DNA of 64,000 nucleotides from an uncultured Gammaproteobacteria bacterium (GCA_964488535.1 CAZAUT010000003.1:2232-66231); one strand, 5' to 3'; shown: positions 8,335 to 61,002, numbered from the stretch's first letter. The notes: generated by a model from the letters alone, not told the origin. Numbers and translations: made by a program.

Positions 8335-8718
8335 CTATCTTTTTCTGGAATTGGAAATAATCCTACTAACTATGGCTACAATTTCTTCCCCTTCTTTAAT
8401 CAAAACACTTATTTTATCTTTAAAGATAATATTTAATTCGTACAAAAGTTTTAACCAATAAACGCTTTCTTTACCCTCTTTTCTTACCGTTGTAAAATTA
8501 TGAACAAAATCTTTCGAGGAAGATACTCCATCGGCTTCCTCGGAATTGGCGCCCATTGAAGTTGAAGACCGCAACAATTGTCCAATAACAATTTTATTTT
8601 CATCCGATTTAGGAAGCGACTTTGTTAATTTAATGACACTGATCACAAACATAAAAATTCGCCTATAAATATTGTATTTTCTGTTTTTAATTGGTAATTG
8701 GTACTTATTGGTGTTCAT
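8335..8718 (-). CDS. four-helix-bundle protein (Avd / 23S rRNA intervening-sequence protein family)
   Basis: GQLLRSSTSMGANSEEA and ESVYWLKLL motifs of the family. The true start is probably the internal Met (MFVISV, near 8652). Confidence 0.65.
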   Translation of the reverse strand: MNTNKYQLPIKNRKYNIYRRIFMFVISVIKLTKSLPKSDENKIVIGQLLRSSTSMGANSEEADGVSSSKDFVHNFTTVRKEGKESVYWLKLLYELNIIFKDKISVLIKEGEEIVAIVSRIISNSRKR

Positions 8719-8734
8719 TGGTATTTATTGGTAT

Positions 8735-9796
8735 TTATTTTGTAATTACATACCTCGCTGCTTTCGTCTTTCCTTCTTTCTTAATAATCTTATTTTCGAT
8801 CAGATAGTTCATGTCACGAAGAACTGTGTCTTCCGATACCATCGGGAAAAGTCTTTTTAGTTCCCCCATTCCGACATATCCGACCTCGCCCATGTGTTCA
8901 ATCAATTTCATCTGCCGTTCAGTAAGAGCGATCTGGTTCCCGATCAAGCCTTTAAGACGGGAATCAACGGAGAGTTTTCTAATTCTTTCTTTTATTTTCG
9001 TTAATTCAATAGCCACCACCTGGGTAAAGTACTCAAGCCACTCCGTCAGATCTTTTTCAAAAACATCACCCTGTTGTGAATCCGTCTTTTCAAAGGCTTC
9101 ATAATAACTTGCAGGGTCGGCGTCAAAATGCTCTTCAAGGGAGAAAAAGCTTTTTATATCATAGTTCTCCCTCATTAATACAAGAGTTGAAAAAGCTCTG
9201 ACTGTCCTTCCATTTCCTTCCACAAAAGGGTGGATAGAAACAAGAATATAATGAACAATTCCCGCCTTCAATATTGGATGTTCCTCCCGTGTATAAGGGC
9301 TATTTAACCATGCAATAAACTGCTCCAAAAGTATCGGCACTCTGGGAAAATTTGGCGGTTGAAAAACAATTTTTCCGCTGCCTTCTTCCTTAATAACAAC
9401 TTCACTTTTTCGCAATATCCCGCTTTTTTCGGGCGCAACAACCTTATCTACCGTTTCTTTGTGAATGTCGGTCAACATCGAAATTTCATACCCCCCCCGT
9501 TTTTCTTTCAGTTCATCCAGGAGTCCGACAACCCTCCTGTAATTTATGACTTCCTGGACATCGCGCTCTCTGGCAAATATCTCTTGTCCCTCCAACACCT
9601 GCCTCGCCTGGTCAATATTAAGGTCGTTTCCCTCCAAATGCGTACCGTGGTGAACGGTCCGCAATATAGCTTCGCTTTTAAATCTCTTTTCGTACAAGGG
9701 AACCAAGGGGGCATTTTCGATAACCTCTTTGGCAGCCTCAATCGCGCCGATGTTTCGAAGAATTTTGTTTGTAATTACAAACTTAGGTTCAAACAT
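8735..9796 (-). CDS. Fic/DOC family protein with C-terminal winged-HTH
   Basis: Canonical Fic motif HPFVEGNGRTVR, and a C-terminal wHTH-like segment. Confidence 0.8.
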   Translation of the reverse strand: MFEPKFVITNKILRNIGAIEAAKEVIENAPLVPLYEKRFKSEAILRTVHHGTHLEGNDLNIDQARQVLEGQEIFARERDVQEVINYRRVVGLLDELKEKRGGYEISMLTDIHKETVDKVVAPEKSGILRKSEVVIKEEGSGKIVFQPPNFPRVPILLEQFIAWLNSPYTREEHPILKAGIVHYILVSIHPFVEGNGRTVRAFSTLVLMRENYDIKSFFSLEEHFDADPASYYEAFEKTDSQQGDVFEKDLTEWLEYFTQVVAIELTKIKERIRKLSVDSRLKGLIGNQIALTERQMKLIEHMGEVGYVGMGELKRLFPMVSEDTVLRDMNYLIENKIIKKEGKTKAARYVITK

Positions 9797-9881
9797 ACCT
9801 TAAGTATTACTCTACTTATATCATATATCAGTATGCGTTTAAAGTGCGGAAAAAACATCTGTTATTGACAATTCCCTATCT

Positions 9882-10286
9882 TTGCAGATACAATCCGCGC
9901 TAATGGCACCACTACTTGAACATGGGGTTAACCTTGATCCGGGAATCCGATACCGTTTCGTAAGTAATGGAAAAACTATTGCTTGTGCACCTCACGACCT
10001 CTTTGGTTTCGACTCTTCCAGACCGGATAATAATTTGACGCACACTCAATTGGCAATAAAATATAAACTTTCCACAGAAATAGATGAACACGGGAGACCA
10101 TTTGTGGCTTCGGCGGGATGGCTTGAGCCGGTAATGTCTGATAAAGGATACAAATGGCGTCTTGACAATGAAGTGAACACTTGTGCCTTAAAAGGTAACT
10201 GGAAAGAACGAGAAACAGCCTTTGCAAATGTTCGGCAAAAGTTAATTGAAATCTTGGGTGAAGATAAAGTTGCTGTTGGTGAATAA
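9882..10286 (+). CDS. hypothetical protein, paralogue of 21..335
   Basis: 134 aa with the shared AGWLEP, TCALKGNWKE and EILGEDKVA motifs. It is divergent from the Fic gene. Confidence 0.4.
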   Translation: MQIQSALMAPLLEHGVNLDPGIRYRFVSNGKTIACAPHDLFGFDSSRPDNNLTHTQLAIKYKLSTEIDEHGRPFVASAGWLEPVMSDKGYKWRLDNEVNTCALKGNWKERETAFANVRQKLIEILGEDKVAVGE

Positions 10287-11168
10287 TCACTTCATTAAAT
10301 CAAAAAACGTCTCAGGTATTTTTTCAGCAAGGTCATCAGAATTGTAGTTTACCCCAACCTTTTTATACAACTCATCCGCCACAGCTTTCTCTATATAACT
10401 TGCCGCACAAGCTGCTAAAAACGGCTCGTTCTTGGCAAGTAACGCAACTGTCAACCCCGCCAACACATCCCCGCTTCCCCCTTTGGTAAGTCCAGGATTT
10501 CCACCTGTTACTTTTACACACTCATTTGGTGAACAAACCACTGACTTGGAACCTTTGGCAACAATAATACAGTTGTGTTTTTTTGCCATTTCCTGAACCA
10601 CTTCCACTCTTCTACTCTTCCACTCTTCTACTCTAAAGAGTATTTCCAACTCTTTAGCATTCGGAGTTAGTATAGCGTTGTTGGGAATCCATTTATTATC
10701 TATGGTTTGCAAACTCCCTGCATCAATCACCCACTTCTTATGAGGGAACTTCAACAGTAATCTTTTAGTAATTTCTCTCGTTTTATTTCCTTCCCTGTCA
10801 TATTTTTTCACCCCTAATTCATTGTTCATAATTCTTGATTCATGCGTAAAGCGCATCATCCCCGGCCCGATCAAAACCGCGTCCGACTTTTCAATATACG
10901 CATCAACTTCCTCCCATGGAACCAATATAAAAGAGGACAATTCTGCTTTTAGTCGCTCAGCAACCCCGCCTACGCTTGACTCCGGCGAAGCAAAGAAAAC
11001 CATATCCACAACTCTTGAAGCGGCTTTTAACGCCAGTATGGGTGCTCCATGGAAGAGTGATGATCCTCCGATTATTGTTACCTGCCCATTTTCCTCATTA
11101 GACGAACCCCATGCTGGACTATATAAACCTGTTAACAGTTTGGTATCAAATATTTTCATAATAAACAA
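10287..11168 (-). CDS. ADP-dependent NAD(P)H-hydrate dehydratase (YjeF C-terminal domain)
   Basis: Motifs GGSSLFHGAPILA, VLIGPGM and GGSGDVLAG. It contains an in-frame EEWKSRRVEVV insertion encoded by the tcttctactc repeat. Confidence 0.7.
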   Translation of the reverse strand: MFIMKIFDTKLLTGLYSPAWGSSNEENGQVTIIGGSSLFHGAPILALKAASRVVDMVFFASPESSVGGVAERLKAELSSFILVPWEEVDAYIEKSDAVLIGPGMMRFTHESRIMNNELGVKKYDREGNKTREITKRLLLKFPHKKWVIDAGSLQTIDNKWIPNNAILTPNAKELEILFRVEEWKSRRVEVVQEMAKKHNCIIVAKGSKSVVCSPNECVKVTGGNPGLTKGGSGDVLAGLTVALLAKNEPFLAACAASYIEKAVADELYKKVGVNYNSDDLAEKIPETFFDLMK

Positions 11169-12151: not shown

Positions 12152-13450
12152 TTATATCTTAATAATCTTCCCCTCCACTCCCTCTATGTAGTGTGGGTCT
12201 GCTGTAGTTATTAAAGTTTGCTGTTTATCTACAATTCCCATCACAACATCCCTATGTTCATGATCGAGTTCTGAAAAAATGTCATCAAGTAATAGAACCG
12301 GCTTATCACCCGTAATACTTTCAATATACGACAGTTCCGCAAGTTTCAGCCAAAGTATTCCCATTCGGGCTTCTCCTCGAGAACCGTATGTAGCAAGATT
12401 TCGAGTAGAATATTTTCCATTTTCCATTTTCTCCCGCAGGACGGGATCCTGCTCCGCAGGAAATTTTCCATTTATTCCCTTTTCTTTTACTCTTCTACTC
12501 TCCTGCTCTTCCACTCTAAAAACGAAATCATCCCTATGCGGTCCTACCAGCGTCGTCCCCGCCGCTACCTCCTCGTTTTCATATTGCTTCAGCCGTCCTT
12601 CACTTATAACACTACTATCATACTGTAAGCTGTAGACCGTCGACTGTAGACTTGTATCTATTTTCCCTTTCCCCCTTTCTTTATTTCTTAAGTTCTTTGT
12701 ATTATTTTTATATATTGGAAATTGGTGCTCATTGGTATTTATTGGATATTGGTATTTATTTATGTAATCGATTAGTTCCCCCCTCTTTTCGGTAATGTAA
12801 TTTCCATGTTTTATAAGGAGTTTATCCCAATACATCAACTGCCCACGGGACAAATTCTCATCCCTTATCCGAAGTAAGAGCCGATTTCTCTGCCGAAGCC
12901 CTTTTTCGTAGATCATCACCGATCTTCGGTATTCACGATCGGTCTGCGACAAAACCGAATCAAGAAATCTTCGCCGAAGCGATGGTGAAGCCGTCACCAA
13001 ATCCATGTCCCATGGACCAAAGAGAACTACCTTCAGATTCCCTGCAAAATCCAAAAGTCTCTTTGCAACTCCATTAACCATTAGTTTTTTTCTCTGCGCC
13101 CTCTGTACTCCTCCGCCATGCAATTCTATTTCACCGTTGGTTAAAACCACCTCTAGGTTTGTATTATGTATTATGTATTTTGTATTATGCGTATTTTCGC
13201 TTAATACATTATTCATGATACTTAATACTGCGGAGACACGAGCAATGCTCGTGTTGTAGCTTATCATCTCCCCCTCCACCCTTGCTTTAAAACTCTTTCC
13301 CGTTGCCAAAAGATAAATTGCTTCCAAAATATTGGTTTTTCCCACAGCATTATCTCCGACAACAATCGTCGTCTTATCCGAAAATTCAAATTTCTTTTTG
13401 CTAAAATTCCTGAAGTTGGTAAGCATCAAATGTTTAATAAACATAATCAA
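12152..13450 (-). CDS. recF: DNA replication and repair protein RecF, carrying in-frame repeat insertions
   Basis: N-terminus LTNFRNF ... VGDNAVGKTNILEAI (Walker A) and a C-terminal LLLDDIFSELD signature. Several in-frame segments are encoded by the ttggtatttattgg, gtattatgtat and tcttctactc repeat families. Confidence 0.8.
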   Translation of the reverse strand: MIMFIKHLMLTNFRNFSKKKFEFSDKTTIVVGDNAVGKTNILEAIYLLATGKSFKARVEGEMISYNTSIARVSAVLSIMNNVLSENTHNTKYIIHNTNLEVVLTNGEIELHGGGVQRAQRKKLMVNGVAKRLLDFAGNLKVVLFGPWDMDLVTASPSLRRRFLDSVLSQTDREYRRSVMIYEKGLRQRNRLLLRIRDENLSRGQLMYWDKLLIKHGNYITEKRGELIDYINKYQYPINTNEHQFPIYKNNTKNLRNKERGKGKIDTSLQSTVYSLQYDSSVISEGRLKQYENEEVAAGTTLVGPHRDDFVFRVEEQESRRVKEKGINGKFPAEQDPVLREKMENGKYSTRNLATYGSRGEARMGILWLKLAELSYIESITGDKPVLLLDDIFSELDHEHRDVVMGIVDKQQTLITTADPHYIEGVEGKIIKI

Positions 13451-17844: not shown

Positions 17845-18780
17845 CTATTTCTGACAATTAGGACACATGTATGTCCCCCTCCCTCCAAGTTTTATTTTTA
17901 CAATCGGTGTTTTACATCGATTGCAGGGTTCCCCCTCCCGCCCGTAAACAAGCGTAAAATCCTGATAGTGTCCTTCACTTCCGTCGGGGGTCACAAATGC
18001 CTGCTCACTGGCACCTCCTTTTTTTATCCCCTCTTTCAGAACTGTCTCTATCGCCTTAAATAACTTAATCACTCGATCACTTGATAACTCAATCGCTTTT
18101 TCCTTCGGATTTATTCCCGCAAGCCACAAAGCATCATTAGCATAAATATTCCCTACCCCCGCCATCTTCGTCTGGTCCATTAAAAGTATTTTTATCGGCT
18201 TTTTGCTCTTTGAGAGAATCTCCGAAAAATCTTTCTCCCTCAAATCCCTCAAAAACTCCTTCCCCAATTTTTTTATGAAGTTTTGAGTTTTGACTTTTGA
18301 ACTTTGAGTTAGTTCCATCCACCCAAACCTCCTGTAATCATTAAAATAAAGAACCGCCCCTTGCCCTTCCGTAGCCTTGTGCGAAGGAGGGTCGTCTAAA
18401 TGAAAAATTACATGTGTGTGTTTCCCCGCCTTCGCCACTCCTTCTTTTAAACGTTCGGGGTTCACATATGCTTCGGCGGGCAAGCCAGGAACTCCCCCAA
18501 CTACCTTGGGCGATAGTTTTTTGTTTTCTGTTTTCTGTTTATTCCTGTAAATAAACTGTCCCGTCATTTTGACGTGGGTCACAATGGAGTACCCGTTTGA
18601 CAAATCCATAACCAACACCTTTCCAAATCTTCTGACACTTGTAATCTTTGCTCCAATTAGTTTTGTCCTATCCCATACCCCGTACTTCGTAATTCTTAAT
18701 TCAAAATTGACTATCGTATGTCCGACAAGAAACCTCTCAAGCTGAACACGTATACTTTCCACCTCTGGCAATTCTGGCAT
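17845..18780 (-). CDS. mutM: formamidopyrimidine-DNA glycosylase (Fpg/MutM), carrying in-frame insertions
   Basis: N-terminus MPELPEVE and a C-terminal zinc finger CNRCKTPIVK...CPNCQ. It has a DPPSHKATEGQG palindromic-element insertion and a gttttgag-repeat insertion. Confidence 0.8.
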   Translation of the reverse strand: MPELPEVESIRVQLERFLVGHTIVNFELRITKYGVWDRTKLIGAKITSVRRFGKVLVMDLSNGYSIVTHVKMTGQFIYRNKQKTENKKLSPKVVGGVPGLPAEAYVNPERLKEGVAKAGKHTHVIFHLDDPPSHKATEGQGAVLYFNDYRRFGWMELTQSSKVKTQNFIKKLGKEFLRDLREKDFSEILSKSKKPIKILLMDQTKMAGVGNIYANDALWLAGINPKEKAIELSSDRVIKLFKAIETVLKEGIKKGGASEQAFVTPDGSEGHYQDFTLVYGREGEPCNRCKTPIVKIKLGGRGTYMCPNCQK

Positions 18781-19303: not shown

Positions 19304-20515
19304 TTAAATCACTTTTTTAATTTCCTTAACAAATTTCTCTTTTGAAAACCTTTTTGCATTGTTCATTATAACCTGCCTGTTCCACTTAATTTTTTCAAAT
19401 CTTTTTATCGCATTTAAAATACTTTTTGTATCATCGCTGTTAACAAATAATCCGGTTATTTCGTCAACTACACTTTCTTTGAATCCTCCGCCATTATATG
19501 CAATAACGGGACAACCTGCAGCCTGCGCTTCAACCGCTGTCATTCCAAAATCCTCATTCTTGGCAAGAGCAATAAAACCTTTTGCATTCGAATACAGTTC
19601 CCACAATTTTTCATCACTTACTCTCCCCATAAATTCAATGTTTCTGAATTTATGTTCCTTAATTCTTGATTCAACATCTGAATACCCCGCCGCCTCCCCT
19701 ACAATCTTCAGTTTGTATTTCCCATCCAATTTTGAAAATGCATCAACCGCATTTTCAATTCCTTTCGCTCCCACCAACCTCGAAACAATTAAGAAGTATT
19801 TCTTATCTTTTTTTCCCTTAATTCTTGCTTGCCCTTCGAAGCCTTGGCGAAGGAGGGATACACGATACTTGATACTTTCCGTATCCACCGGCGGATAAAT
19901 AACTACCGAATCTCTTTTATAAAATTTGTCTATTCTTCTTTTGACATTTGCTGAATTCGCAATAAACAAATCCACTCCAGCTGTTATTTTTTGTTTATTG
20001 CTTATTGCTTTTTGCTTACTGCCGTATGGCATTTGTGCTGTCTTAAAATCATACTGACGTAAAAAATGTCCGACAATAGAAGCATAAATTTTTACCGGCC
20101 AGTACTTTGTAAAGCCAACCGATGTTTCATATCCATAAAGCCATCGTGGCGGTGTATGACAATAAGCTATCACTTTGGTGTGCGGTCCAATTTTAAATCC
20201 CCGGGTTATATACCAGCTGCAAGAAGTAATAACCAAGTCATATTTTGATAAATCCAAACTACCCCAAATTAACGGAATTAAAAATCTTAAGGGGCTATAC
20301 AATTTCCAAATTTTTAAAATTGGTGCCAACCAACTTTCGTGTATTTCCGCATCCGGAAATTCTTTTTGAGCAGTACTACCTTTAACCGTAAATGCGGTAT
20401 AAATAGGCGCATTTGGGTACATTTCTATTAATACCTTCAATACGCGTTCAGCCCCTCCAAATTCTTTAATGTAGTCATGCACAAGCGCCACGCGCTTGTG
20501 TGTATTATGTATCAT
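19304..20515 (-). CDS. glycosyltransferase family 4 (group 1), carrying an in-frame palindromic-element insertion
   Basis: EDFGMTAVEAQAAGCPVIAYNGGG signature. The insertion LLRQGFEGQA is encoded by cccttcgaagccttggcgaaggaggg. Confidence 0.75.
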   Translation of the reverse strand: MIHNTHKRVALVHDYIKEFGGAERVLKVLIEMYPNAPIYTAFTVKGSTAQKEFPDAEIHESWLAPILKIWKLYSPLRFLIPLIWGSLDLSKYDLVITSCSWYITRGFKIGPHTKVIAYCHTPPRWLYGYETSVGFTKYWPVKIYASIVGHFLRQYDFKTAQMPYGSKQKAISNKQKITAGVDLFIANSANVKRRIDKFYKRDSVVIYPPVDTESIKYRVSLLRQGFEGQARIKGKKDKKYFLIVSRLVGAKGIENAVDAFSKLDGKYKLKIVGEAAGYSDVESRIKEHKFRNIEFMGRVSDEKLWELYSNAKGFIALAKNEDFGMTAVEAQAAGCPVIAYNGGGFKESVVDEITGLFVNSDDTKSILNAIKRFEKIKWNRQVIMNNAKRFSKEKFVKEIKKVI

Positions 20516-20518
20516 GTA

Positions 20519-20905: not shown

Positions 20906-20979
20906 AATACTTTATACCTTATACGTTATACATATTTTACATTGCGTTATACATAATACTTTATACGTTATACTCAAAC
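20906..20979. repeat. tandem-repeat array, tatacgt/tatacat family
   Basis: atacataatactttataccttatacgttatacatattttacattgcgttatacataatactttatacgttatac. Confidence 0.6.
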
Positions 20980-48946: not shown

Positions 48947-49026
48947 AAGTCAAAACTCAAAACAAAAACTTAAAACTGAAAAGTTTTTAGCTTTAATCTG
49001 AAACTTTGAACTTTAAGCTTTTAGCT
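48947..49026. repeat. inverted tandem-repeat element, ctcaaaac / gttttgag family
   Basis: aaactcaaaagtcaaaactcaaaacaaaaacttaaaactgaaaagtttttagctttaatctgaaactttgaactttaagc. Confidence 0.55.
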
Positions 49027-49642: not shown

Positions 49643-52099
49643 GTGTCACAATGTAATATAATATGCAACATGAAGAAGAAAGAAAGACATAAACAAAAAA
49701 CAGGGATCGAAAAGCGAAAAGTAGAAAGCAATAAGAAATTAAAAAGTATATTGAATGTTGTATATCGTATGTTGGGGAAAGCAGTAAACAGAAAGCAGAA
49801 AGCAAAAAACAAGAAAACAGTAAACAAAAAGCAGAAAGCTCTCCTTCGTATGAAGCTACGGACAAGCGAAGTAATTAACAAAAAGCTAAAGACAAGAATC
49901 CCGCGGAAATCTTTTTTGCATAATAAAAAATTCCGCATCATTATCGCCTGTGGTCTATTGACTGCAGTCGTTGCCTTCACAACGTGGCTTTTTTGGGGAC
50001 TTCCCCTTCCTACAAAACTACTGAAATCACAGGTTCCGGTTTCCACAAAATTATATGATCGTAACGGAGAACTAATATACGAGATATATGCCGATAAAAG
50101 AAGCTCACCCGTTAATATTGACGAACTGCCGTCCTACGTCATTGACGCCACAATCTCAATTGAAGACAAGGATTTTTACAGACACCACGGCTTCTCAATT
50201 TCCGGTATTACGCGTGCTGCCTATAACACGCTTTTCAAGCAAAAGCTGCAGGGCGGTTCAACTTTAACGCAACAACTGGTGAAGAATGTACTCCTGACGC
50301 CCGAACGTACCGTCAAAAGAAAGATGCGGGAATTGGTAATTACGGTTATCGTCGAAATACTGTATTCCAAAGAGCAAATCCTTGATCTTTATTTTAATCA
50401 GATTCCTTATGGTTCCACCGCTTACGGAATAGGATCCGCAAGTGAATTGTATTTTGATAAAGATGCCAAGGATCTTACTCTTGCAGAAGCTGCACTTTTG
50501 GCAGGAATTACCGCAGCACCGACAAAATACTCTCCCTTTGGGGCTCATCCGGAGATCGCTAAATCAAGACAGGAAATTGTTCTTGCCCGTATGGTCGAGG
50601 ACGGGAAGATAACGCAGGAGGATGCAGATGAGGCCAAATCACAAGAACTGAAATTCGCCGAACCGCAAAAGTTTAACGCTCCTCATTTTTCTCTCTGGGT
50701 AAAAGAACTTCTGGCTGATAAATACGGGGACACACTGGTTGAACAAGGAGGTCTTCGTGTTACAACTACCCTTGATATGGATCTTCAAGAATACGCGGAA
50801 GGCACGGTCTCGGGTGAGTTGGCGAAATTGAAAAAACAAAATGTCGGAAACGGTGCAGTACTTGTCACCCGCCCCGGGTCAGGGGAAATTCTTGCAATGG
50901 TTGGATCAAAAGATTATTTCGCCAAAGACGAAGATGGAAAAGTAAATGTCATTTTTGCCAACCGCCAACCGGGATCATCCATAAAACCCATAAACTATGC
51001 TCTGGCTCTGAAAGACAGAAAGATCACTCTTTCCACTCCCCTGGCTGATGTGCCGACTTGTTTCTCGGTCTACGGACAAAAGGCGTACTGTCCGGTGAAT
51101 TACGACGGATCGTTCCATGGAGCAGTCCAGCCGAGATTTGCATTGGGAAATTCCTACAACAGTCCCGCGGTAAGAGTCTTGGCTCTTAATGGTTTGGAAC
51201 ACTTTATAGATTTTGCCAATCAGATGGGATTAACGACGTTTATTGATCCAAAAAATTACGGATTGTCGCTAACTCTTGGCGGGGGCGAAGTAAAACCGTA
51301 TGACATGGCAACCGCCTTTGGTGTTTTTGCAAACGAGGGAGTAAAAATACCTCTCAATCCGATACTTAAAATTACAGACTGGAAAGGAGAAGTGTACGAA
51401 GAAGTTGATCCCAACAAGATTGACGGAACAAGAGTACTTGATCCTGAAGTGACATTTTTAATCTCTCACACCCTTCACGACAATAATGCAAGATCGGCTG
51501 CTTTCGGCAGCAACTCATACTTGGTAGTCAAAAACCATTCCGAGGTGTCTGTAAAAACCGGAACAACCAACGATAGAAAGGATAACTGGACGATCGGTTA
51601 TACTTCTCAAATTCTTACTCTCGTCTGGGTCGGGAACAATGATAATTCGGAAATGAGCGGAGCCGTTTCCGGTGTCTCAGGAGCATCGCCAATCTGGAAC
51701 TCTGTAATTAAATATGCACTTGATAAGGCCGAAAAAAGCTATTACAACCAAGAAGATGATGGGCACGCCTGGCCGAGACAGCCTGAAGGAATCGTCGGGA
51801 AAAATGTCTGTGCAACAACTGGAAACATACCAACCAATCCTGATTCTCCAGAGTGTGGAACTAGGTTTGAATATTTCATCAAAGACGCAATTGGTGCGAA
51901 TATCCAGGCGGGACAAAAGGATGTACTTGTATTCAAAGATACAAGACAGCTTGCCAATGAAGATGCCCTTCCCGAACAGGTAGAAGTACAAAACCACCCC
52001 TTCCTTCTCGACCCTTTGGGGACTCTTGTCTGTCTCGATTGTCCCCTGGCAAGTTCATCTGCTAAAATCAGCTACCCTTTGATTGCTGCGCCCAACTAA
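49643..52099 (+). CDS. class A penicillin-binding protein (transglycosylase + transpeptidase)
   Basis: GT51 motifs EDKDFYRHHGFS and GGSTLTQQLVKN. Transpeptidase motifs RQPGSSIKP, SYN and KTGTT. Confidence 0.85.
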   Translation: MSQCNIICNMKKKERHKQKTGIEKRKVESNKKLKSILNVVYRMLGKAVNRKQKAKNKKTVNKKQKALLRMKLRTSEVINKKLKTRIPRKSFLHNKKFRIIIACGLLTAVVAFTTWLFWGLPLPTKLLKSQVPVSTKLYDRNGELIYEIYADKRSSPVNIDELPSYVIDATISIEDKDFYRHHGFSISGITRAAYNTLFKQKLQGGSTLTQQLVKNVLLTPERTVKRKMRELVITVIVEILYSKEQILDLYFNQIPYGSTAYGIGSASELYFDKDAKDLTLAEAALLAGITAAPTKYSPFGAHPEIAKSRQEIVLARMVEDGKITQEDADEAKSQELKFAEPQKFNAPHFSLWVKELLADKYGDTLVEQGGLRVTTTLDMDLQEYAEGTVSGELAKLKKQNVGNGAVLVTRPGSGEILAMVGSKDYFAKDEDGKVNVIFANRQPGSSIKPINYALALKDRKITLSTPLADVPTCFSVYGQKAYCPVNYDGSFHGAVQPRFALGNSYNSPAVRVLALNGLEHFIDFANQMGLTTFIDPKNYGLSLTLGGGEVKPYDMATAFGVFANEGVKIPLNPILKITDWKGEVYEEVDPNKIDGTRVLDPEVTFLISHTLHDNNARSAAFGSNSYLVVKNHSEVSVKTGTTNDRKDNWTIGYTSQILTLVWVGNNDNSEMSGAVSGVSGASPIWNSVIKYALDKAEKSYYNQEDDGHAWPRQPEGIVGKNVCATTGNIPTNPDSPECGTRFEYFIKDAIGANIQAGQKDVLVFKDTRQLANEDALPEQVEVQNHPFLLDPLGTLVCLDCPLASSSAKISYPLIAAPN

Positions 52100-52404: not shown

Positions 52405-53100
52405 TTGGCAAAAAGCGTAAAATCTATGTTTATTAACCGGCTTCGCCTTTTTCAGAATCTTCTCGTTCTTTCGTTGGTTACCTTAATTACCATTGTCTGG
52501 TCCACGGTTATTTTTTTATCTCATCAAAATGAACAATTATTTAAACAAGGAAAAATCATTTCCTCATATGAAGAATGTGCTGGTTCAGGAAATGTAATTT
52601 TGGAATCCTACCCTTCCATATGTATCACCAAAGACGGACAGCGGTTTGTACAGCAGTTGCAGACTTCAGTAAATGAACCTGATAACTGGCAGGAATATGT
52701 TGACAGTGATTACAATTTCTCGGTATCCCATCCGTCTTACATCACACCTCAATTCGGCACAAATGATCTTGTCTTAAAGTCAATCTATTTTCATGAAACC
52801 GGAGAAGAAACACGATTCTGGATGACAATTGAAGTGAATCAAAGTAGTTTGGAATTTTCCAATGCGGTAGAAAACGAACTTGCGATAATCTCGCACGGCA
52901 ACGGAAAATTGTTAAAAAAAGCCGATATTTCAATTCAGAACTATAACTCCATCAGGGCAGATTATGATTCACAAAGTAGTGGTGGAAAACCGATTTCGCA
53001 TATATATATCGACAAAAAACCATACATCTACGCCATACATACTTACACCAAGGACGTTGACCAAATTCTCTCTACCTTTCGATTTGAATCTGATCAATAA
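52405..53100 (+). CDS. membrane-anchored hypothetical protein, paralogue 1 of 3
   Basis: Conserved N-terminal anchor FQNLLVLSLVTLITIVWSTVIFLSHQN and C-terminal DQILSTFRFESDQ. Confidence 0.5.
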   Translation: MAKSVKSMFINRLRLFQNLLVLSLVTLITIVWSTVIFLSHQNEQLFKQGKIISSYEECAGSGNVILESYPSICITKDGQRFVQQLQTSVNEPDNWQEYVDSDYNFSVSHPSYITPQFGTNDLVLKSIYFHETGEETRFWMTIEVNQSSLEFSNAVENELAIISHGNGKLLKKADISIQNYNSIRADYDSQSSGGKPISHIYIDKKPYIYAIHTYTKDVDQILSTFRFESDQ

Positions 53101-53103: not shown

Positions 53104-54300
53104 TTGAATTTAATGAATATTAAACTTCGCTTTCTTCAAAACCCTCTTGCATTGTCTGCCATAACTTTAATAGTTATCGTCTGGTCAACAGTTTCTTTTC
53201 TTGCATACCAAAATAAACTTCTAAAAATTCAAGAGAAACATTTTGAAAAAAATATCCCAAAAAGTATATCCGAAAGCATTTCTACTGCACCACCTTTTCC
53301 ATTCGGATCATTTTCTATATCATCCATTCCCAACTGGCGTAAGTATTCGAATTCTGAATTAAACTATTCTATTGAATTTCCAAACGATTGGAACTTTTCT
53401 ATTAACGACACATACCCAGAAAATCCGATTTTCTATATCTCTAAAGACAAATTAAGCAATTGGCATGAATGCCATAGAAAAACATCTTGTTTGGTAATCC
53501 AAACAAACATGGGTGGACGTGGCGGTTATATGTTCATGACAAAAACTCGTCAATCCTTATACAATCAAAATAACGTATCTGGAATACGAACCGACATTCT
53601 CGCATATGATGGAGGTGTTTACAGTTTTTTTATTAATATTGACGAACATATTCAACGACCACTGTGGAAACAGGGAACAATAGACATTTTTCCCAAAATC
53701 ATTAATGAAAAATTTTCCGAAACGGAAATGTTGCATCGTACCGGCCAAACCTCATTTGATTCACGGCTTGATAGCATTGCAACAGATACTGAAGATTTAT
53801 CTCTCCTTAGCCAAATCCTCTCCACATTTAAATTCACCGACAACAACCATAACAATTCGCTAAAGTGTATAAATGCTTTTGCGAACTCCAAAATTGAACT
53901 GCCCAACCACTCCATCCTCAATGGAACAGTAAGTGGGCAGGTTTTTTGGCCGTCTGAAAAACTACCAATAGGCATTAAAGTATGTGCATATAACACTTTA
54001 AACTATGCTAGATATTGCACCTCAGAAATCTTAAACGAAAATCCCTTCTATTCCTTATCTATCCCTGAAGGAAACTATTATATTTTTTCACTCTCCGCAG
54101 ACGGTTTAATTGGGGTGGATGGAATGTTAACAAAAAACAATGATCGCTATGTAGATACGGATACCGCAGGTTCAATAATTAGTGAAGCTCCTTTGCATAT
54201 ACATGTCGGCGCAAACACTACAACAGAAAACATAGATGTCGGTGATCATGTAATTGGTAAAAATACTCTTTCCTGTCCGGAAGTAAAAAACAACAAATGA
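53104..54300 (+). CDS. membrane-anchored hypothetical protein, paralogue 2 of 3
   Basis: Anchor LQNPLALSAITLIVIVWSTVSFLAYQN and C-terminal SQILSTFKFTDNN, with a longer central region. Confidence 0.5.
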   Translation: MNLMNIKLRFLQNPLALSAITLIVIVWSTVSFLAYQNKLLKIQEKHFEKNIPKSISESISTAPPFPFGSFSISSIPNWRKYSNSELNYSIEFPNDWNFSINDTYPENPIFYISKDKLSNWHECHRKTSCLVIQTNMGGRGGYMFMTKTRQSLYNQNNVSGIRTDILAYDGGVYSFFINIDEHIQRPLWKQGTIDIFPKIINEKFSETEMLHRTGQTSFDSRLDSIATDTEDLSLLSQILSTFKFTDNNHNNSLKCINAFANSKIELPNHSILNGTVSGQVFWPSEKLPIGIKVCAYNTLNYARYCTSEILNENPFYSLSIPEGNYYIFSLSADGLIGVDGMLTKNNDRYVDTDTAGSIISEAPLHIHVGANTTTENIDVGDHVIGKNTLSCPEVKNNK

Positions 54301-54339: not shown

Positions 54340-55074
54340 ATGTTATCCAACAAATTTCATTTTTTTCAAAACACCCTCACCCTTTCTGCTGTTGCTTTTA
54401 TCATTACCTTCTGGTCAACAGTTTCTTTTCTTGCATACCAAAACAATCAATTTAAAGAATATTCAGATGGATACAAAAGAGGTATAGACATATTTAAAAC
54501 AACACCAGCCCCTTCACCGGTTCCTACAATTTATCAACTGCAAATAACTGAGGATAACAATTGGTATGTTTTTAAAAATGAAGAATATCATTACACAATT
54601 AGCTATCCTAAAAATTTTAGGCTAATTGGTCGAGACCCTGCATCTATTGAAATAGACTTAGACCAAACGGAGGGGGCACCAACAAGATGGTTAAGAATTA
54701 ATGTTGTTTCCCCGGAAAATATTTCTCAATACCAAATACTTAACAATTTAGAAGTTGGTGAGACCACGGTTGATAAAGCAAATGAATTCAATACATGGAA
54801 AAGACTGAATAACAGAGATATTGCCAATGTTTCAGCAAAAGTGTTTATTAACGAAAAACCGTGGGAACTTCCGATACTAAAACTGATTATTCTTGAACAT
54901 AACAATGTCTTTCTAATAATAAAATATGTTCCATATAACAGTACCCAAGAGTCTATAAAAAAACAACCAGATGACCCTGAAGCCCGGATTGATTTTGTTG
55001 GTATCTTTGACCAAATTCTCTCCACCTTTCGATTTGACTCAGAGTTGCAACATTCAAATTTACCCGCTGAATGA
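54340..55074 (+). CDS. membrane-anchored hypothetical protein, paralogue 3 of 3
   Basis: Anchor FQNTLTLSAVAFIITFWSTVSFLAYQN and C-terminal DQILSTFRFDSELQ. Confidence 0.5.
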   Translation: MLSNKFHFFQNTLTLSAVAFIITFWSTVSFLAYQNNQFKEYSDGYKRGIDIFKTTPAPSPVPTIYQLQITEDNNWYVFKNEEYHYTISYPKNFRLIGRDPASIEIDLDQTEGAPTRWLRINVVSPENISQYQILNNLEVGETTVDKANEFNTWKRLNNRDIANVSAKVFINEKPWELPILKLIILEHNNVFLIIKYVPYNSTQESIKKQPDDPEARIDFVGIFDQILSTFRFDSELQHSNLPAE

Positions 55075-55159
55075 TTTTGGTATTACCGAAACTTTAATTT
55101 CCATTTACCAAAATCTCCACATTGTTGTCTTTTATATTTCTTTGATCTTTAGATCTTAA

Positions 55160-55480
55160 GCTTTACTTGCATTTTCCCTTCAATTACTCGATTGCTTACT
55201 CACTTAATCGCTTAATCGCTTCGTCGCCTTATCCCTTTGTATTTTTATTTCCTTCCCTGACAATACTTAATACATAATACGTTATACACTTTCCCCATTC
55301 CCCCATACATGCTTCATCCTACTTACTACATTCTGCATACTACGTGCTTTCTTTCTCCCTATATACTATATACAGCATACAATATACTGTTTCTTCCCTA
55401 GTATCCCAATATACTCCCTTGACCTCTTTTGTTATCTTTTTATCCTTTTAATCCTATTTATTTTTAAATATTTAGGTACT
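55160..55480. repeat. intergenic tandem-repeat arrays (cgcttaatcg, tacgttatac, tatacagcatacaatatac families)
   Basis: Direct reading shows several period 7-10 families in succession upstream of the second PBP gene. Confidence 0.55.
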
Positions 55481-55493
55481 AAATTGAATTAAA

Positions 55494-57815
55494 ATGGGTT
55501 ACTGCCAAACCCGAAAACCAAATGTTAAACAATTTTCAAAATTAGCAAAAAAAGGCCTCAAATTCTTGAAAGGCCTTGTGCTTTTGGTCGGCAAACCGTT
55601 CTACCTTATTTTCCTGCTTCTTCTTACCGTTCTAAATTCCGTTCTAAATTTCGCGTTTTCAAGAAAGTATAACAATTATAATCGTTATAATAATTATAAT
55701 TTTTATATTAAACTCCTTCTTACCTCTTCTACTCTTCTACTCTTCTACTCTTCTACTCTTTCTGGTCTTCCTTCCCCCAAAACCCTCTCTACAACCCATC
55801 CTCCTCTTTCGACAAAGATCTATGATAGGGACGGCTTTTTGCTTTATACAATTTACGATAATGAAAACAGGTCGCTTGTTTCAATTAAAGACATACCCGC
55901 CCATCTGATTCTGGCTACTCTGGCAATCGAAGATAACGAGTTCTACAAACATCCCGGTTTTTCTGCAAAGGGAATACTCCGTGCCCTATCGAAAAATATC
56001 AGTGACGGTACAATGTACGGAGGTTCAACAATTACCCAGCAGCTCGTTAAAAATACACTTCTTTCTTCCGAAAAAAGTATCGAAAGAAAAATAAAGGAAC
56101 TTTTTCTGGCTATAGAGATCGAACTTTTATACCCCAAAAACAGAATTCTTGAAATGTATCTCAACACGTCTCCTTACGGCGGTCCGGTATACGGCATCGG
56201 TCAGGCTGCAAGGGTTTATTTCGACAAAGATGTCGAAAAATTGTCGTTGGCAGAATCGGCTTTTCTGGCGGGTATTCCAAAAAGTCCCAATATATATTCG
56301 CCGTTTATCGGTGATATCGATAGAGGACTGGAAAGACAAAAAGAAGTGCTTTCTCTCATGCTTTCAAATGGTTTCATAACTTCTGTTCAATTTGAAGAAG
56401 CAATGTCCGAAACACTTTCGTTCTCAGGCAATAAAATAAAAATATATTCTCCTCACTTTGTTATGTATGTAAAAGATCTTCTTGAAAAGGATTTCGGAAA
56501 GGATACTGTCTCCCGCGGAGGACTGGAGGTTACGACAACTCTTGATATAAATATCCAAAAGGCAGCCGAAAAAGTTGTATCCGAGGAAATTGCAAATCTC
56601 AAAAACCAGAAGGTCACAAACGCTGCGGTAATTGTTCTCAACCCAAAGAATGGAGATATTCTGGCAATGATCGGATCCGCGGATTATTTTAATAAGACAA
56701 ATAATGGCAATGTAAACGCCGTTCTTTCGCTTCGTCCTCCGGGTTCTTCAATTAAGGTTGTCAACTATGTATATGCTTTATCACACGGCTATACCGCTGC
56801 AACCGTTGTCGACGACTCCCCCGTCTCATATTCTTATTCCGGATCACCTCCCTACTCGCCGGTCAATTATGACAGAAAGTTTAAAGGAAAAATGACAGTC
56901 AGATCGGCGCTTGCACAGTCAAGGAATGTCCCTGCTGTTAAGATTCTTAATTCTTACGGAATCGAAAATATGATAGCCACGGGGAAGAGCATGGGTATCT
57001 CAACATGGGAAGAAAGCCAAAATTTCGGTCTTTCAATGACACTTGGAGGTGCAAATACAACTTTGTACGATCTTGCGGGTGTATACTCCGTCATTGCCAA
57101 TTACGGTGTAAAACCAAACATCAACCCGATTCTGTCTGTGAGGAACTACAACTCATTACTGCTTTCACAAAAGGCATGCGTCAGAAGCAATCATTCGGCG
57201 GTTTTACCGACTGTTCCGATACAAAAACTAAAAACTCTTGCAGATATTCCCCGTCTATCTCTCATATCACTCACAAGTGCATCATACTCGGCGGATTTTG
57301 AAAAAAATGATACCTGCAAAGTCAACTACGTCATAGATCCCAGAGTTGCGTTTATCATTACCGATATTCTAAAAGACAATAAGGCACGATCACCTGCATT
57401 CGGAGCAAACTCCCAGCTCACAATTAAAGACCATCCCGAGGTGGCAGTAAAAACCGGAACAAGTAATTCCATACGTGACAATGTCGCCATTGGTTATTCT
57501 CAAGATTATTTGGTGGCCGTGTGGGTGGGAAATAATGACAATTCGCCGATGAGTAATATTGCTTCCGGGGTTACCGGTGCAACGCCGATTTTTAATAAAA
57601 TAATGACAAAACTGCTTGAAAACGACGAAAGTAAGGATTGGGAAATCCCGTCAGGTTTGGTAAAACTGCCGGTTTGCACGTCCTTCAAAGTTCCCGACAG
57701 TGAAGAAATTATCGTCAAAAGATATGAGGAGTGGTTTTTGGAGGAAAATGTACCGAAAAATGTGTGTTTAAAAAAAACAACTAAACATTTGAAGGAAAGT
57801 GGGTTAATGCTCTGA
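55494..57815 (+). CDS. class A penicillin-binding protein, second copy, with in-frame repeat segments near the N-terminus
   Basis: EDNEFYKHPGFS, GGSTITQQLVKN, RPPGSSIKV and KTGTS. N-terminal YNNYNRYNNYNFY and SSTLLLFYSSTL are encoded by the aattataat and tcttctactc repeats. Confidence 0.85.
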   Translation: MGYCQTRKPNVKQFSKLAKKGLKFLKGLVLLVGKPFYLIFLLLLTVLNSVLNFAFSRKYNNYNRYNNYNFYIKLLLTSSTLLLFYSSTLSGLPSPKTLSTTHPPLSTKIYDRDGFLLYTIYDNENRSLVSIKDIPAHLILATLAIEDNEFYKHPGFSAKGILRALSKNISDGTMYGGSTITQQLVKNTLLSSEKSIERKIKELFLAIEIELLYPKNRILEMYLNTSPYGGPVYGIGQAARVYFDKDVEKLSLAESAFLAGIPKSPNIYSPFIGDIDRGLERQKEVLSLMLSNGFITSVQFEEAMSETLSFSGNKIKIYSPHFVMYVKDLLEKDFGKDTVSRGGLEVTTTLDINIQKAAEKVVSEEIANLKNQKVTNAAVIVLNPKNGDILAMIGSADYFNKTNNGNVNAVLSLRPPGSSIKVVNYVYALSHGYTAATVVDDSPVSYSYSGSPPYSPVNYDRKFKGKMTVRSALAQSRNVPAVKILNSYGIENMIATGKSMGISTWEESQNFGLSMTLGGANTTLYDLAGVYSVIANYGVKPNINPILSVRNYNSLLLSQKACVRSNHSAVLPTVPIQKLKTLADIPRLSLISLTSASYSADFEKNDTCKVNYVIDPRVAFIITDILKDNKARSPAFGANSQLTIKDHPEVAVKTGTSNSIRDNVAIGYSQDYLVAVWVGNNDNSPMSNIASGVTGATPIFNKIMTKLLENDESKDWEIPSGLVKLPVCTSFKVPDSEEIIVKRYEEWFLEENVPKNVCLKKTTKHLKESGLML

Positions 57816-59088: not shown

Positions 59089-59556
59089 GTGATTGTTCCG
59101 AAAGTGAAAATTCTCCACACTTCAAGATACATATTGACACACGCTAATTTACAGAATATATTTGTGCCAATTACTATGAGTCCATTTTTTGAAATCGAAG
59201 GTGATATTAAAACCTATTATGATGACAGCCCGCAGGGAAGTCGCCGGCAAGTGGTTTTAACAAGAAGATCCCGATTATATCAAGGTGACGTTGTCGACTT
59301 GTTTCAGTTTGAAGGCATTCTCAGACCACAAGTGGCTGCTGTACATGTAGTAGATGATAATAATTTAAAAATTGTAAGATTCCCAACAGAAGACTTAAGA
59401 TTAGAAGAAGAAAGTTTGGATATGCAGAACTTTGAAGCTCCAGTGCGACGCGTATTTCCCATTGAAAGAAGAGTTTCCAGAGAAAGTGTAATACTTACCA
59501 ATCGGAAAATAACCGAAATTCACGCGGTAATTTACGAAGAAAAAGAAGAAAAATAA
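59089..59556 (+). CDS. hypothetical protein
   Basis: 155-aa ORF with no recognisable motif. Confidence 0.3.
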   Translation: MIVPKVKILHTSRYILTHANLQNIFVPITMSPFFEIEGDIKTYYDDSPQGSRRQVVLTRRSRLYQGDVVDLFQFEGILRPQVAAVHVVDDNNLKIVRFPTEDLRLEEESLDMQNFEAPVRRVFPIERRVSRESVILTNRKITEIHAVIYEEKEEK

Positions 59557-59617
59557 CAAATACCCCCATATTTCTTCTTTTACCACAAAAAAACTTAATA
59601 TTAAAAATCGCTTAATT

Positions 59618-60604
59618 TTAGCTTCTGCGGGAGTCCCAAATCTCGGGATTTACCAAGTTCTCCGGCTTTTCACCGCTAGCGGTTTTGAGTATCGCATCAA
59701 CCGCCAACTGTCCCATTTTCTCTCTGGCCTCAAAGGTAGCCGAGGCAATATGGGGAGTTAATATTACATTCTCCATTCCGATAAGCTCCGGATTAATGTT
59801 CGGCTCCGTTTCAAAAACGTCCAAGCCCGCTCCCCCGACCTTACCTTCACGAAGCCCGTCAACAAGCGCGTGCTCATCAACGATTGGGCCTCGGGCAGTA
59901 TTAACAATAATAACACCGTGCTTCATTTTTCCGATTGCGTCACGGCCGATCATTCCTCTTGTTTCGTCAGTTAGGGGAACATGTACGGAAATAAAATCCG
60001 ATTCGCTATAAAGCCGATCCAAATCCGCAAACTCTATTCCGAATTCTTTCTCTGCTTCTGAGTCGGGAGATCTTTTGTTATACAAAACCCTCATATCAAA
60101 TCCTTTTACTCTTTTGGCAGCCATCGTCCCAATTCTCCCGAGACCGATTATTCCCAACGTCTTTCCCTTCAACGCACGCCCAAGAAAAATATTAGGTTCC
60201 CACCCGCGGTAACTTCCTCTTTTGGTTGACTCGTCCGCCTCGACTATTCTTCTGGCAAGAGATAGCATCAAAGTTACCGCGTGTTCGGCAACGGCTTCGT
60301 TGACTTCGTCGCAAGGGGTATTTGCAATCAAAACATTTCTGTCGGTTGCGTCTTTGACGGTGATATTGTCAAATCCAACCGCATAATTACTGAATATCTT
60401 TACTTGGGGGCCAATTGCATCAATCACATCCCCATTTATCTTATCCGTCAGAAAAGACAAAACCGCATCCATTCCCCTCGCACGTTCCAGAAACTCCTCC
60501 GGTTCCAGAGGTCTGTCATGTTCACAAACATAAACCTCGTTTCCCGAATTTATCAAGCGGTCAAGATGTGTTCCCGGAAATTTTCTTGAAACAAAAATTC
60601 GCAT
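59618..60604 (-). CDS. D-isomer-specific 2-hydroxyacid dehydrogenase (glyoxylate / hydroxypyruvate reductase family)
   Basis: NAD-binding GIIGLGRIGTMAAKR plus a catalytic-domain pattern including HIASAT. Confidence 0.8.
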   Translation of the reverse strand: MRIFVSRKFPGTHLDRLINSGNEVYVCEHDRPLEPEEFLERARGMDAVLSFLTDKINGDVIDAIGPQVKIFSNYAVGFDNITVKDATDRNVLIANTPCDEVNEAVAEHAVTLMLSLARRIVEADESTKRGSYRGWEPNIFLGRALKGKTLGIIGLGRIGTMAAKRVKGFDMRVLYNKRSPDSEAEKEFGIEFADLDRLYSESDFISVHVPLTDETRGMIGRDAIGKMKHGVIIVNTARGPIVDEHALVDGLREGKVGGAGLDVFETEPNINPELIGMENVILTPHIASATFEAREKMGQLAVDAILKTASGEKPENLVNPEIWDSRRS

Positions 60605-60639
60605 AAAAGTTTATTAAGTTGACTGAGTTAATTAAGAAA

Positions 60640-61002
60640 TTAAGTTGATTTTTTTATTGTCAAGATATTACTGTTGATTCCCTTAGCCAAACCACCATAT
60701 TCATGGTCCATATTTTGAAAATTCACTTTATCAATATATCCTAAACCGAGTGCTATTGACAAGTGGCTTTGGGTTTCAAAACATTCTCCACGGGGAACAT
60801 ATAACGATCTGACTTTATCCTTATAGTAATATCTTCCATAAGCTTCCGCAATTCCGGCAGTAACTCCGTTTGCCGAACTTCTAGTTTGACTTATTAAGTT
60901 GTATTTTTCTTCTTTTGGATAGGTTGAAGTAATTTTGTAAATTTCTACCTCCAACTCGTATGCCTCCCTCCAAATATTTAAGTCCCTAAAACTACCAACC
61001 AT
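60640..61002 (-). CDS. four-helix-bundle protein (Avd / 23S rRNA IVS family)
   Basis: LNIWREAYELEVEIYK..YPKEE..GIAEAYGRYYYKDK. Confidence 0.75.
   Translation of the reverse strand: MVGSFRDLNIWREAYELEVEIYKITSTYPKEEKYNLISQTRSSANGVTAGIAEAYGRYYYKDKVRSLYVPRGECFETQSHLSIALGLGYIDKVNFQNMDHEYGGLAKGINSNILTIKKST

Follow-up and report, generated by a model that had tools for sequence, protein, structure and literature searches.

Why should one 64-kb stretch of a reduced bacterial genome carry six genes of a single small-protein family, each with repeat-like DNA at its borders? The stretch, hereafter the window, comprises 64,000 nucleotides (GCA_964488535.1, CAZAUT010000003.1:2232-66231) deposited as an uncultured Gammaproteobacteria bacterium, and the genes encode four-helix-bundle (4HB) proteins, which account for 6 of roughly 65 genes in this genome of the candidate phyla radiation (CPR). 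To our knowledge the family (PF05635/TIGR02436), although very large, has no known function outside diversity-generating retroelements (DGRs). Our answer, held with moderate confidence, is that the six genes are the cargo of ~450-bp cassettes of the type of the rRNA intervening sequences (IVSs), here situated outside rRNA, in which two inverted arms and the 4HB open reading frame (ORF) behave as one unit. By sequence comparison, the host is a relative of Candidatus Woesebacteria. For the TrpRS of the window, identity reaches 67% with the enzyme of RIFCSPHIGHO2_01_FULL_39_32 and 83% with one on a contig from a metagenome-assembled genome; no relative more than 64% identical was found for the neighbouring MetRS-beta-like gene.

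The six genes and their flanks

The 4HB genes all lie on the minus strand, which is unremarkable as this strand carries 47 of the 70 window ORFs. Numbered by position, they are copy 1 (8335-8718, 127 aa; 64.6 bits against PF05635 and 79 bits against TIGR02436), copy 2 (20519-20905, 128 aa; 117.8 and 113 bits; at an exo|GT4 site), copy 3 (25693-26073, 126 aa; 117.6 and 112 bits), copy 4 (31655-32203, 182 aa; 19.3 and 19.4 bits), copy 5 (39282-39653, 123 aa; 109.4 and 101 bits) and copy 6 (60640-61002, 120 aa; 97.4 and 86 bits). Copies 1, 2, 3, 5 and 6 pass both PF05635 (23S_rRNA_IVP, cut-off 33.8 bits) and TIGR02436 (four helix bundle protein, cut-off 24 bits), and copy 2 matches the solved structure 2gsc by sequence at E = 3.8e-17. 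The copies are old paralogues, mutually 19-62% identical. The closest pair is formed by copies 2 and 3 (62% identity), with similarity extending ~15 nt upstream and ~30 nt beyond the stop codon. The RxxxSxxxNxxE motif described for the family (PMC3936711) is complete in copies 1-3, incomplete in copy 5 (C for N) and divergent in copies 4 and 6. Every copy has protein-coding genes on both sides, or a tRNA gene on one side and a protein-coding gene on the other. None of the six proteins is matched by a family of the PADLOC defence-system models at E ≤ 0.001.

Copy 4 combines a four-helix bundle, an insertion and a C-terminal suffix domain. Its N-terminal part stays below threshold in the family models (19 bits), while TIGR04258 ('4helix_suffix', cut-off 40 bits) is passed at 55.7 bits. 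Alignment with a 23-sequence family profile gave an hhalign probability of 75% (E = 2.5e-5), and the top Protein Data Bank matches of its AlphaFold2 model (pLDDT 84) are 2gsc (Xcc0516) and 2rld (BT_0352), with target-normalised TM scores of 0.73-0.79. Weak Foldseek E-values (0.16-0.7) accompany these matches, a common outcome with helical bundles. Comparison of profile and predicted fold thus confirms copy 4 as a suffix-domain variant of the 4HB family; its subfamily counts 4,764 database relatives under the NCBI name 'four helix bundle (suffix domain-containing) protein'.

An earlier note on this DNA had listed the six ORFs with these positions, strand and suffix-domain variant, all of which stands. 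Its term 'Avd-like' is appropriate at the level of the superfamily, whereas the Avd models proper are not reached (best scores 27.7 bits for NF033474, cut-off 80, and 31 bits for PF22296, cut-off 40). Its observation that the window shows neither a reverse transcriptase (RT) nor a template/variable repeat (TR/VR) pair is borne out: Pfam scans of 30 larger window ORFs returned no RT, and the direct-repeat families of the window are only arrays or paralogues, with no TR/VR-like repeats among them.

The feature that sets these genes apart is the relation between their two flanks. Around every 4HB gene the flanks are reverse complements of each other, forming arms of 22-50 nt that are 72-82% complementary and that abut or overlap the start and stop codons. 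The arms are built from units of 7-10 nt, typically in arrays of ~4-5 units, and the repeat unit differs per copy. Flank complementarity was scored by local alignment and full folding; duplex-energy scoring was dropped as too noisy in AT-rich repeats. All arms are read on the minus strand, and array calls are from Tandem Repeats Finder (TRF). In cassette 1, the 5′ arm of (AAATACCAAT)n at 8684-8726 (43 nt; TRF 8688-8739) overlaps the start codon and is 79% complementary to the 3′ arm of (ATTGGTATTT)n at 8278-8320 (flank score 47, 46 expected 5′:3′ pairs). Cassette 2 has GTATWAY-type 7-mers at 20900-20932 (33 nt, 82% complementary, overlapping the ATG; TRF 20900-20974) and a 3′ arm at 20501-20533 that overlaps the stop codon and, downstream, the start annotated for the GT4 gene (score 36). 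The same unit type occurs as degenerate, TRF-negative 7-mers in cassette 3, at 26068-26100 (33 nt, 76%), facing a 3′ arm at 25675-25707 that overlaps the stop codon (score 31, 36 expected pairs). Cassette 4 is the weakest, with an upstream (CTAATTTGN)n array at 32226-32268 (43 nt, 72%, score 24) and a partly palindromic downstream array at 31635-31677 overlapping the stop codon (TRF 31634-31674). The 5′ arm of cassette 5, (GATATTAG)n at 39648-39697 (50 nt, 76%; TRF 39656-39705), ends in AGGAGA-ATG and has a second array nearby at 39723-39759; its 3′ arm, (CTAATATC)n at 39246-39295, overlaps the stop codon (score 41, 48 expected pairs). Cassette 6 carries a TRF-negative, TTAACTAAGTAAATTAAG-type 5′ arm at 61061-61082 (22 nt, 82%), 59-80 nt upstream of the ATG, and a 3′ arm at 60618-60639 directly after the stop codon (score 27, 32 expected pairs).

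Compared with the 63 other ORFs of the window, the flank scores of copies 1, 2, 3 and 5 exceed all controls, while that of copy 6 is matched by one control and that of copy 4 by four (Mann-Whitney p = 4e-5 for the six copies together). Folding the transcripts of 40 small genes placed five of the six copies among the top 6 for pairing between 5′ and 3′ flanks, with 32-48 expected pairs; copy 4 reached 14. The predicted terminal stem closing over the ORF is accordingly weak in copy 4, moderate in copy 6 and strong in the other four copies.

Tandem arrays as such are not diagnostic. The window holds 89 merged short arrays, equal to 20% of its non-ORF DNA, plus 1.3 kb within ORFs, and because they are spread over its whole length the adjacency of an array to a 4HB gene is unremarkable taken alone. 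Only 8 of the 89 touch a 4HB gene, around copies 1, 2, 4 and 5, and these are also the only copies with TRF-detectable arrays on both sides. The claim that repeat arrays adjoin each gene thus holds for these four, whereas copies 3 and 6 have inverted arms that TRF does not detect. The consistency of flanks that had been proposed lies in the inverted bracket, which is specific to 4HB genes and was missed at first reading, and not in the repeat unit, which varies between copies and belongs to arrays found throughout the window.

Repeats away from the 4HB genes were catalogued as well. Most intergenic DNA consists of concatenated arrays with 7-10-nt units in ~3-5 copies each (for example 2973-3263, 5742-6037 and 55075-55493); one syntenic relative (L006) is comparably array-rich, and another (L003) is compact with few arrays. 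Gene-free hairpins, in which an array is followed by its reverse complement, lie at 33809-33945, 36271-36355, 7871-8057, 47156-47531, 48947-49026, 63462-63545, 1905-2006 and 32792-32879, the first two with the unit type of the cassette 1 arms. That these hairpins are decayed cassettes was considered and rejected, as tblastn finds no 4HB remnants inside them. Arrays also interrupt conserved genes, where, relative to the orthologues in L003, L005 and L006, they form in-frame insertions of ~10-55 codons that leave the frames open; the genes are RecF (12412-12760 and 13160-13189), a 5′-3′ exonuclease (21553-21647), Fpg (18059-18310), PCMT (1079-1199) and NnrD (10601-10634). A 72-nt repeat ending in a TCCTAATATC array occurs seven times in one orientation (3069-3140, 3188-3259, 5818-5889, 22964-23035, 32878-32949, 39618-39689 and 39690-39761), each closely preceding a minus-strand gene and reading GATATTAGGAG on its coding strand.

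Recurrence of the bracket and behaviour of the unit

The bracket is not peculiar to this genome. Relatives 53-68% identical were collected from 80 metagenome loci by a profile search built from three copies, giving 73 non-redundant clusters. The median flank-complementarity score was 34 for these 73 homologues and 16 for 436 other ORFs of the same loci, and 78% of the homologues exceeded the 95th percentile of the controls (p = 5e-35). Family arms measure ~30 nt, the 5′ arm spanning -27 to +6 around the ATG and the 3′ arm -12 to +17 around the end of the stop codon, and a repeat period of 7 dominates. The best match of a 5′ arm was its own partner in 19 of 69 cases, against ~1 expected by chance. 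Other cargo genes in the same type of bracket were sought and rejected, since the high-scoring non-4HB ORFs all adjoin cassettes.

Plasmid loci of cultured organisms (Nostocales, other cyanobacteria and Riemerella) behaved alike in 10 of 12 cases, with scores of 27-56 where controls gave 9-19. Their arms consist of (TAGGGTG)n/(CACCCTA)n in Calothrix, (CAGGAGT)n in Nostoc and Aulosira, (GGGAAAA)n in Geminocystis and Nostoc ATCC 53789, and (GGTTYAA)n in Riemerella. The number of heptamers varies between L063 and L064 and between strain C052 and N. punctiforme. The inverted bracket around a 4HB gene is therefore common to three phyla, namely CPR bacteria, cyanobacteria and Bacteroidota. At ~450 bp, a cassette takes up the entire spacer between the stop codon of the preceding gene and the start codon of the following one, and 95% of cassettes are co-oriented with the upstream gene as compared to 79% of other ORFs. 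Among the loci examined here, PF05635 genes occupy cas6|cas4 and cmr2|cmr3 junctions, and members wedged within cas operons have been noted before (PMC3936711). Beyond a paper on the Coxiella IVS, the literature searched contained nothing on hairpin or heptamer brackets, or on short tandemly repeated repetitive (STRR) sequences, as brackets of non-rRNA family members.

Several comparisons show that, at the level of the family, arms and ORF form one evolutionary unit that is inserted, deleted, duplicated and exchanged as a block. Duplication is seen in locus L024, where two copies 1.5 kb apart are ~96% identical over ~455 bp and unrelated outside; the duplicate block starts with TTGAATCAT, where the 5′ array has its outer end, and finishes with ATGATTCAA, the corresponding end of the 3′ array. 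Cassette similarity between L012 and L013 is likewise confined to -25 to +14. Insertion or loss is seen in a Nostoc plasmid operon, in which the neighbouring proteins are 97-98% identical between strains and cassette occupancy differs. At the ORF441|ORF288 junction a cassette is present in C052 and N. punctiforme, and the site is empty in ATCC 53789 (TAG-gtt-ATG). At ORF288|ORF1542 it is ATCC 53789 that carries a different cassette (40% identical, with other arms), and the other two strains read TAATG or TAAgtttATG. Finally, four orthologous pairs of metagenome contigs gave synonymous divergence (dS) for element and adjacent genes of 0.09 vs 0.57-0.69, 0.29 vs 1.4-1.8, 1.1 vs 2.1-2.6 and 0.9 vs 1.2. 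The element dS is thus 2-8 times below that of its neighbours and identity switches at the outer edge of the array, which indicates exchange of cassettes between lineages.

Related loci provided further observations. In L024 an mreB gene lies between the two near-identical cassettes (L024:1356-2360); L084 holds three cassettes in 4 kb, and such dense local clusters are common among related genomes. On the N. punctiforme plasmid pNPUN01 (L110:1400-1900), the heptamer ATTCTAA, with which the upstream ORF ends (stop codon included), recurs at the far end of the cassette just before the downstream ATG, as a possible 7-bp target duplication. The more general proposal that arrays arise as an in-phase continuation of the last heptamer of the upstream gene, or in another manner resembling target-site duplication, did not hold over 67 junctions (identity 0.36 vs 0.36 in controls, p = 0.47).

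The sites of the window itself tell a composite story. Synteny is kept in seven relatives, and sites 2, 3 and 5 are empty in L003, L004, L005, L092 and L093, with the arms gone too. The exo|GT4 site of copy 2 occurs in three states: empty or without a 4HB gene (L003, L005 and L093), intact, and, in L006, as a frameshifted and internally deleted pseudogene, which documents decay. Where L029, L078 and L082 carry a 4HB gene at this site, the arms are different, though complementary within each pair, and the proteins resemble copy 3 at least as much as copy 2. The copy-5 site lacks the 4HB gene in L003, and the array unit of the 72-nt repeat described above is also present in this empty site (L003:422-454).

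A 194-kb Woesebacteria contig (L102), syntenic with window positions 39653 to 10287, provided orthologues at three sites: 63% identical to copy 5 at site 5 (other copies at most 48%), 72% identical to copy 4 at site 4 (other copies not close) and 70% identical to copy 3 at site 3 (60% to copy 2). These identities of 63-72% are on a par with the 53-72% of the housekeeping neighbours. At each of the three sites the L102 orthologue has arms of the same unit type, and for copy 4 so does the orthologue in L095. The position of copy 4 beside a convergent XerC-like gene is kept in L095-L099, and its site is present in L102 as well. As they sit at fixed sites and diverge together with their neighbours, at least copies 3, 4 and 5 are shown by these alignments to be long-standing and vertically inherited residents rather than recent arrivals. 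Arm complementarity and, among orthologues, the arm unit type are kept while the sequences otherwise diverge. With a dN/dS of 0.03-0.09 (79 non-synonymous vs 202 synonymous differences), the proteins are under strong purifying selection, from which it follows that cassettes last long and have a function, while being gained, lost, replaced and duplicated from time to time.

The suggestion of the earlier note that gene and flanks form a mobile or recombining unit is therefore upheld for the family and, historically, for this genome, by the duplicates, the Nostoc empty sites, the dS values and the empty or decayed sites of the Woesebacteria relatives, and does not extend to recent mobility of the copies in the window. 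The same note had held that vertical conservation at fixed positions with ordinary intergenic repeats as flanks would speak against such a unit. The first half of this describes copies 3, 4 and 5, whereas the flanks are anything but ordinary, being inverted, closing over the ORF and conserved in unit type.

Proposed mechanism and competing explanations

How such a cassette might be tolerated and maintained is suggested by its layout. The 5′ arm lies over the ribosome-binding site together with the start codon, and the 3′ arm over the stop codon. In a read-through transcript the arms could pair into a ~30-bp stem hiding both the ribosome-binding site and the AUG. By analogy with the IVSs of Coxiella and Leptospira, this stem may be a substrate of RNase III and the cassette RNA may be cut out, which would explain why insertion within a transcription unit is tolerated. 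The 4HB protein probably acts on the repeat arms in cassette expression, maintenance or spread. Its solved relatives are pentameric barrels that bind nucleic acid. Given this, together with arm types that are specific to paralogues and conserved among orthologues, binding of the protein to its own arms is the most economical guess.

Several observations weigh against the cassette reading. Rfam detects no rRNA gene in the window, so the elements are not IVSs in the strict sense; as they lack the defining location in rRNA, they are classed as working like IVSs and not as IVSs. Two of the 12 cultured loci lack inverted arms, with direct heptamer arrays in Pseudanabaena and a 3′ array only in PCC 7120. 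The arms of copy 4 are individually not significant, and its L102 orthologue has no 3′ arm. Arrays with the same unit types are also found alone and within ORFs, hence the arms could come from a genome-wide repeat pool. Neither a consistent target-site duplication nor a recombinase was found at the cassettes, and no recombinase is encoded in them. Since copies 3, 4 and 5 co-diverge with their neighbours, mobility in this genome is historical rather than demonstrated. Lastly, selection on the stem at the RNA level was sought as an excess of G.U pairs; on the sense strand the arms show 49 G.U and 52 A.C mismatches (p = 0.84) besides 131 others. This absence of bias does not exclude an RNA function, yet arm complementarity could equally act at the DNA level, as a recombination substrate or as the product of an insertion mechanism.

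The first alternative, which we regard as unlikely, takes the protein for a pentameric ring that, in the manner of TRAP, recognises tandem repeats by their sequence, 4-5 units at a time; the arms would be autoregulatory operators and the solo arrays its regulon, with mobility secondary. It would account for the possession by each paralogue of its own arm unit, with the type conserved among orthologues at 63-72% protein identity, for arrays of typically ~4-5 units, for the low dN/dS, and for the shared orientation of all seven GATATTAG-type arrays, which precede genes. Among solved structures the nearest, 2gsc, was deposited as a five-chain entry, and the title of a work cited in PMC3936711 refers to an assembly of five four-helix bundles. 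Binding alone, however, does not explain the inverted layout with its overlap of start and stop codons, proteins at the exo|GT4 site that are 58-71% related have quite different arms, and arrays also occur where no cognate gene is visible.

Rather unlikely, in our judgement, is the view that these are ordinary small regulatory or housekeeping genes, vertically inherited, with generic intergenic repeats or terminator-like hairpins as flanks and nothing mobile about them. The orthologues of copies 3, 4 and 5 at the same sites in L102 and L095, their neighbour-like identities, the strong purifying selection and the 89 arrays across the window, some inside ORFs, are what it would predict. Yet it is already contradicted at the family level by the unit-limited duplicates of L024 and L012/L013, the precise empty sites in closely related Nostoc plasmids and the 2-8-fold lower dS of the element, and it does not foresee that the other ORFs of an array-rich window lack inverted flanks or that the same bracket recurs in three phyla.

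A non-autonomous DNA transposon seems quite improbable. Under this proposal a MITE-like (miniature inverted-repeat transposable element) or REPIN-like element, or an IS200/IS605-type hairpin, would carry the gene as a passenger and be mobilised in trans by a transposase encoded elsewhere. Inverted-repeat termini, unit-limited duplicates and the lack of G.U bias fit a repeat acting at the DNA level, and gene-free inverted-array hairpins of the same unit types do occur in the window. These hairpins contain no 4HB remnants, however, and no transposase was found in the window or beside the more than 80 loci examined. As the arms differ from one cassette to the next, a single trans-acting enzyme could not recognise them all; moreover, there is no consistent target-site duplication, and the cargo is always one protein family under purifying selection, unlike a passenger gene. 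That the cassettes are Avd genes or relics of DGRs is hardly credible and the suggested DGR link is not supported: despite a common superfamily, weak sub-threshold matches to bAvd/NF033474 and the Avd chain of a DGR ribonucleoprotein among the distant fold matches, the scores fall short of the Avd cut-offs, the window has neither RT nor TR/VR pair, and the differences between the recent L024 copies are ordinary transitions, not adenine-specific.

The cassette reading can also be taken further, although we consider this extension rather improbable. PF05635 proteins and tandem arrays would then be cognate pairs, in which a pentamer recognises its own 4-5-unit arms as single-stranded or hairpin nucleic acid and drives insertion, maintenance or copying without transposase, integrase or RT. 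Gene-free arrays and hairpins would be non-autonomous derivatives, and these would include the in-frame inserts in RecF, Fpg and the 5′-3′ exonuclease as well as the cyanobacterial STRRs. If true, this would amount to a new class of protein-guided mobile hairpin element that jointly explains rRNA IVSs, STRRs and the spread of the orphan family.

Where rRNA IVSs come from and what they are for have been open questions since about 1990. Should the IVS build and the unit behaviour be common to stand-alone family members of CPR bacteria, cyanobacteria and Bacteroidota, the IVS is one case of a general cassette, and the questions become testable in tractable hosts such as Nostoc and Anabaena. The cassette reading also explains why 4HB genes are wedged in cas, par and biosynthetic operons; such genes should be read neither as functional parts of these operons nor as DGR markers.

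Neighbouring features and relation to known systems

Other features of the window lie apart from these questions. A tRNA-Ile(UAU) gene on the minus strand (32409-32603) is split in its anticodon loop by a 123-nt insert which itself contains a complete tRNA-Ile(UAU) (32463-32535); spliced in silico, the outer halves give a valid tRNA. One more pair of tRNA-like halves lying further out (32311-32651) was considered and gave no valid spliced tRNA. On the plus strand, the anticodon loop of tRNA-Leu(CAA) at 29907-30226 is interrupted by a group I intron of 249 nt (ARAGORN with introns enabled; Rfam RF00028, 51.9 bits), and a duplicated 5′ tRNA half lies beside tRNA-Met at ~29530-29600. Three ribonucleotide-reductase-like ORFs are arranged in tandem on the minus strand (39768-41927, 719 aa; 41937-44243, 768 aa; 44152-46662, 836 aa). 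A non-coding 66-nt segment at 37495-37560 is 80% identical to 38709-38774, the 3′ end of a Cob_adeno_trans-like gene (38700-39236), 1.2 kb downstream of which it looks like a gene-end fragment. Class A penicillin-binding-protein genes at 49643-52099 and 55494-57815 flank three plus-strand ORFs without Pfam match (52405-53100, 53104-54300 and 54340-55074) that have a 95-nt N-terminal segment in common (62-78% identity).

The relation of the cassettes to known systems varies from one system to the next. With the Avd proteins of DGRs they share a small basic protein of the four-helix-bundle superfamily, but the scores lie under the Avd cut-offs, RT, TR/VR pair and adenine mutagenesis are missing, and the genes stand alone in unrelated operons. 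MITEs and REPINs are likewise short inverted-repeat elements, and integron gene cassettes are promoter-less single-gene cassettes co-oriented with their host unit; here, in contrast, the arms are not common to the copies, and there is no RAYT or other transposase and no platform of IntI, attC and attI. The XerC-like gene next to copy 4 is a conserved housekeeping gene and not cassette-linked. A parallel is offered by homing-type selfish genes such as those in the cycle of homing endonucleases and inteins, as one site can be empty, intact or degenerate depending on the lineage, the flanks are older than the element, and precise insertion spares the host genes. The cassettes differ in having neither a nuclease domain nor an identified conserved target, and their cargo is conserved over long periods in some lineages.

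The STRRs of heterocystous cyanobacteria, which Mazel and colleagues are said to have described in 1990, are reportedly dispersed heptanucleotide tandem repeats without an associated gene. Both they and the cassette arms are intergenic tandem 7-mers, and on the plasmids of Nostoc, Calothrix and Aulosira such arrays are the cassette arms; the pairing of inverted arrays around a PF05635 gene was, however, not found in the literature searched.

The closest counterpart is the IVS itself. In the 23S rRNA of Coxiella burnetii it measures 428-444 nt and has a 28-bp terminal stem with the S23p ORF in the loop; 2-3 tandem heptamers (GACAGAT), variable in number between strains, stand just before the S23p ATG, and the RNase III cut coincides with the start of the first repeat (PMC4990558). 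Published proposals for the IVS include what is left of a transposition event, or a mobile element with an ORF that promotes its mobility. The IVSs of Coxiella and Leptospira and the present cassettes have in common the S23p/PF05635 protein family, a size of ~430-450 nt, tandem heptamers directly before the ATG in strain-variable number, the sense orientation within a transcription unit, and a sporadic presence with horizontal transfer (PMC4990558). They differ in location, the cassettes lying between protein-coding genes of operons and the IVSs in rRNA helices 9, 25 or 45, and in density, with six cassettes in 64 kb. Excision by RNase III is known for the IVS, whereas the stems of the cassettes are predicted, and the Coxiella S23p appears unexpressed and decaying while the proteins of the window are under strong purifying selection. 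The build of the rRNA IVS was thus known; what is new are IVS-type cassettes outside rRNA, across phyla, with arms made of heptamer arrays.

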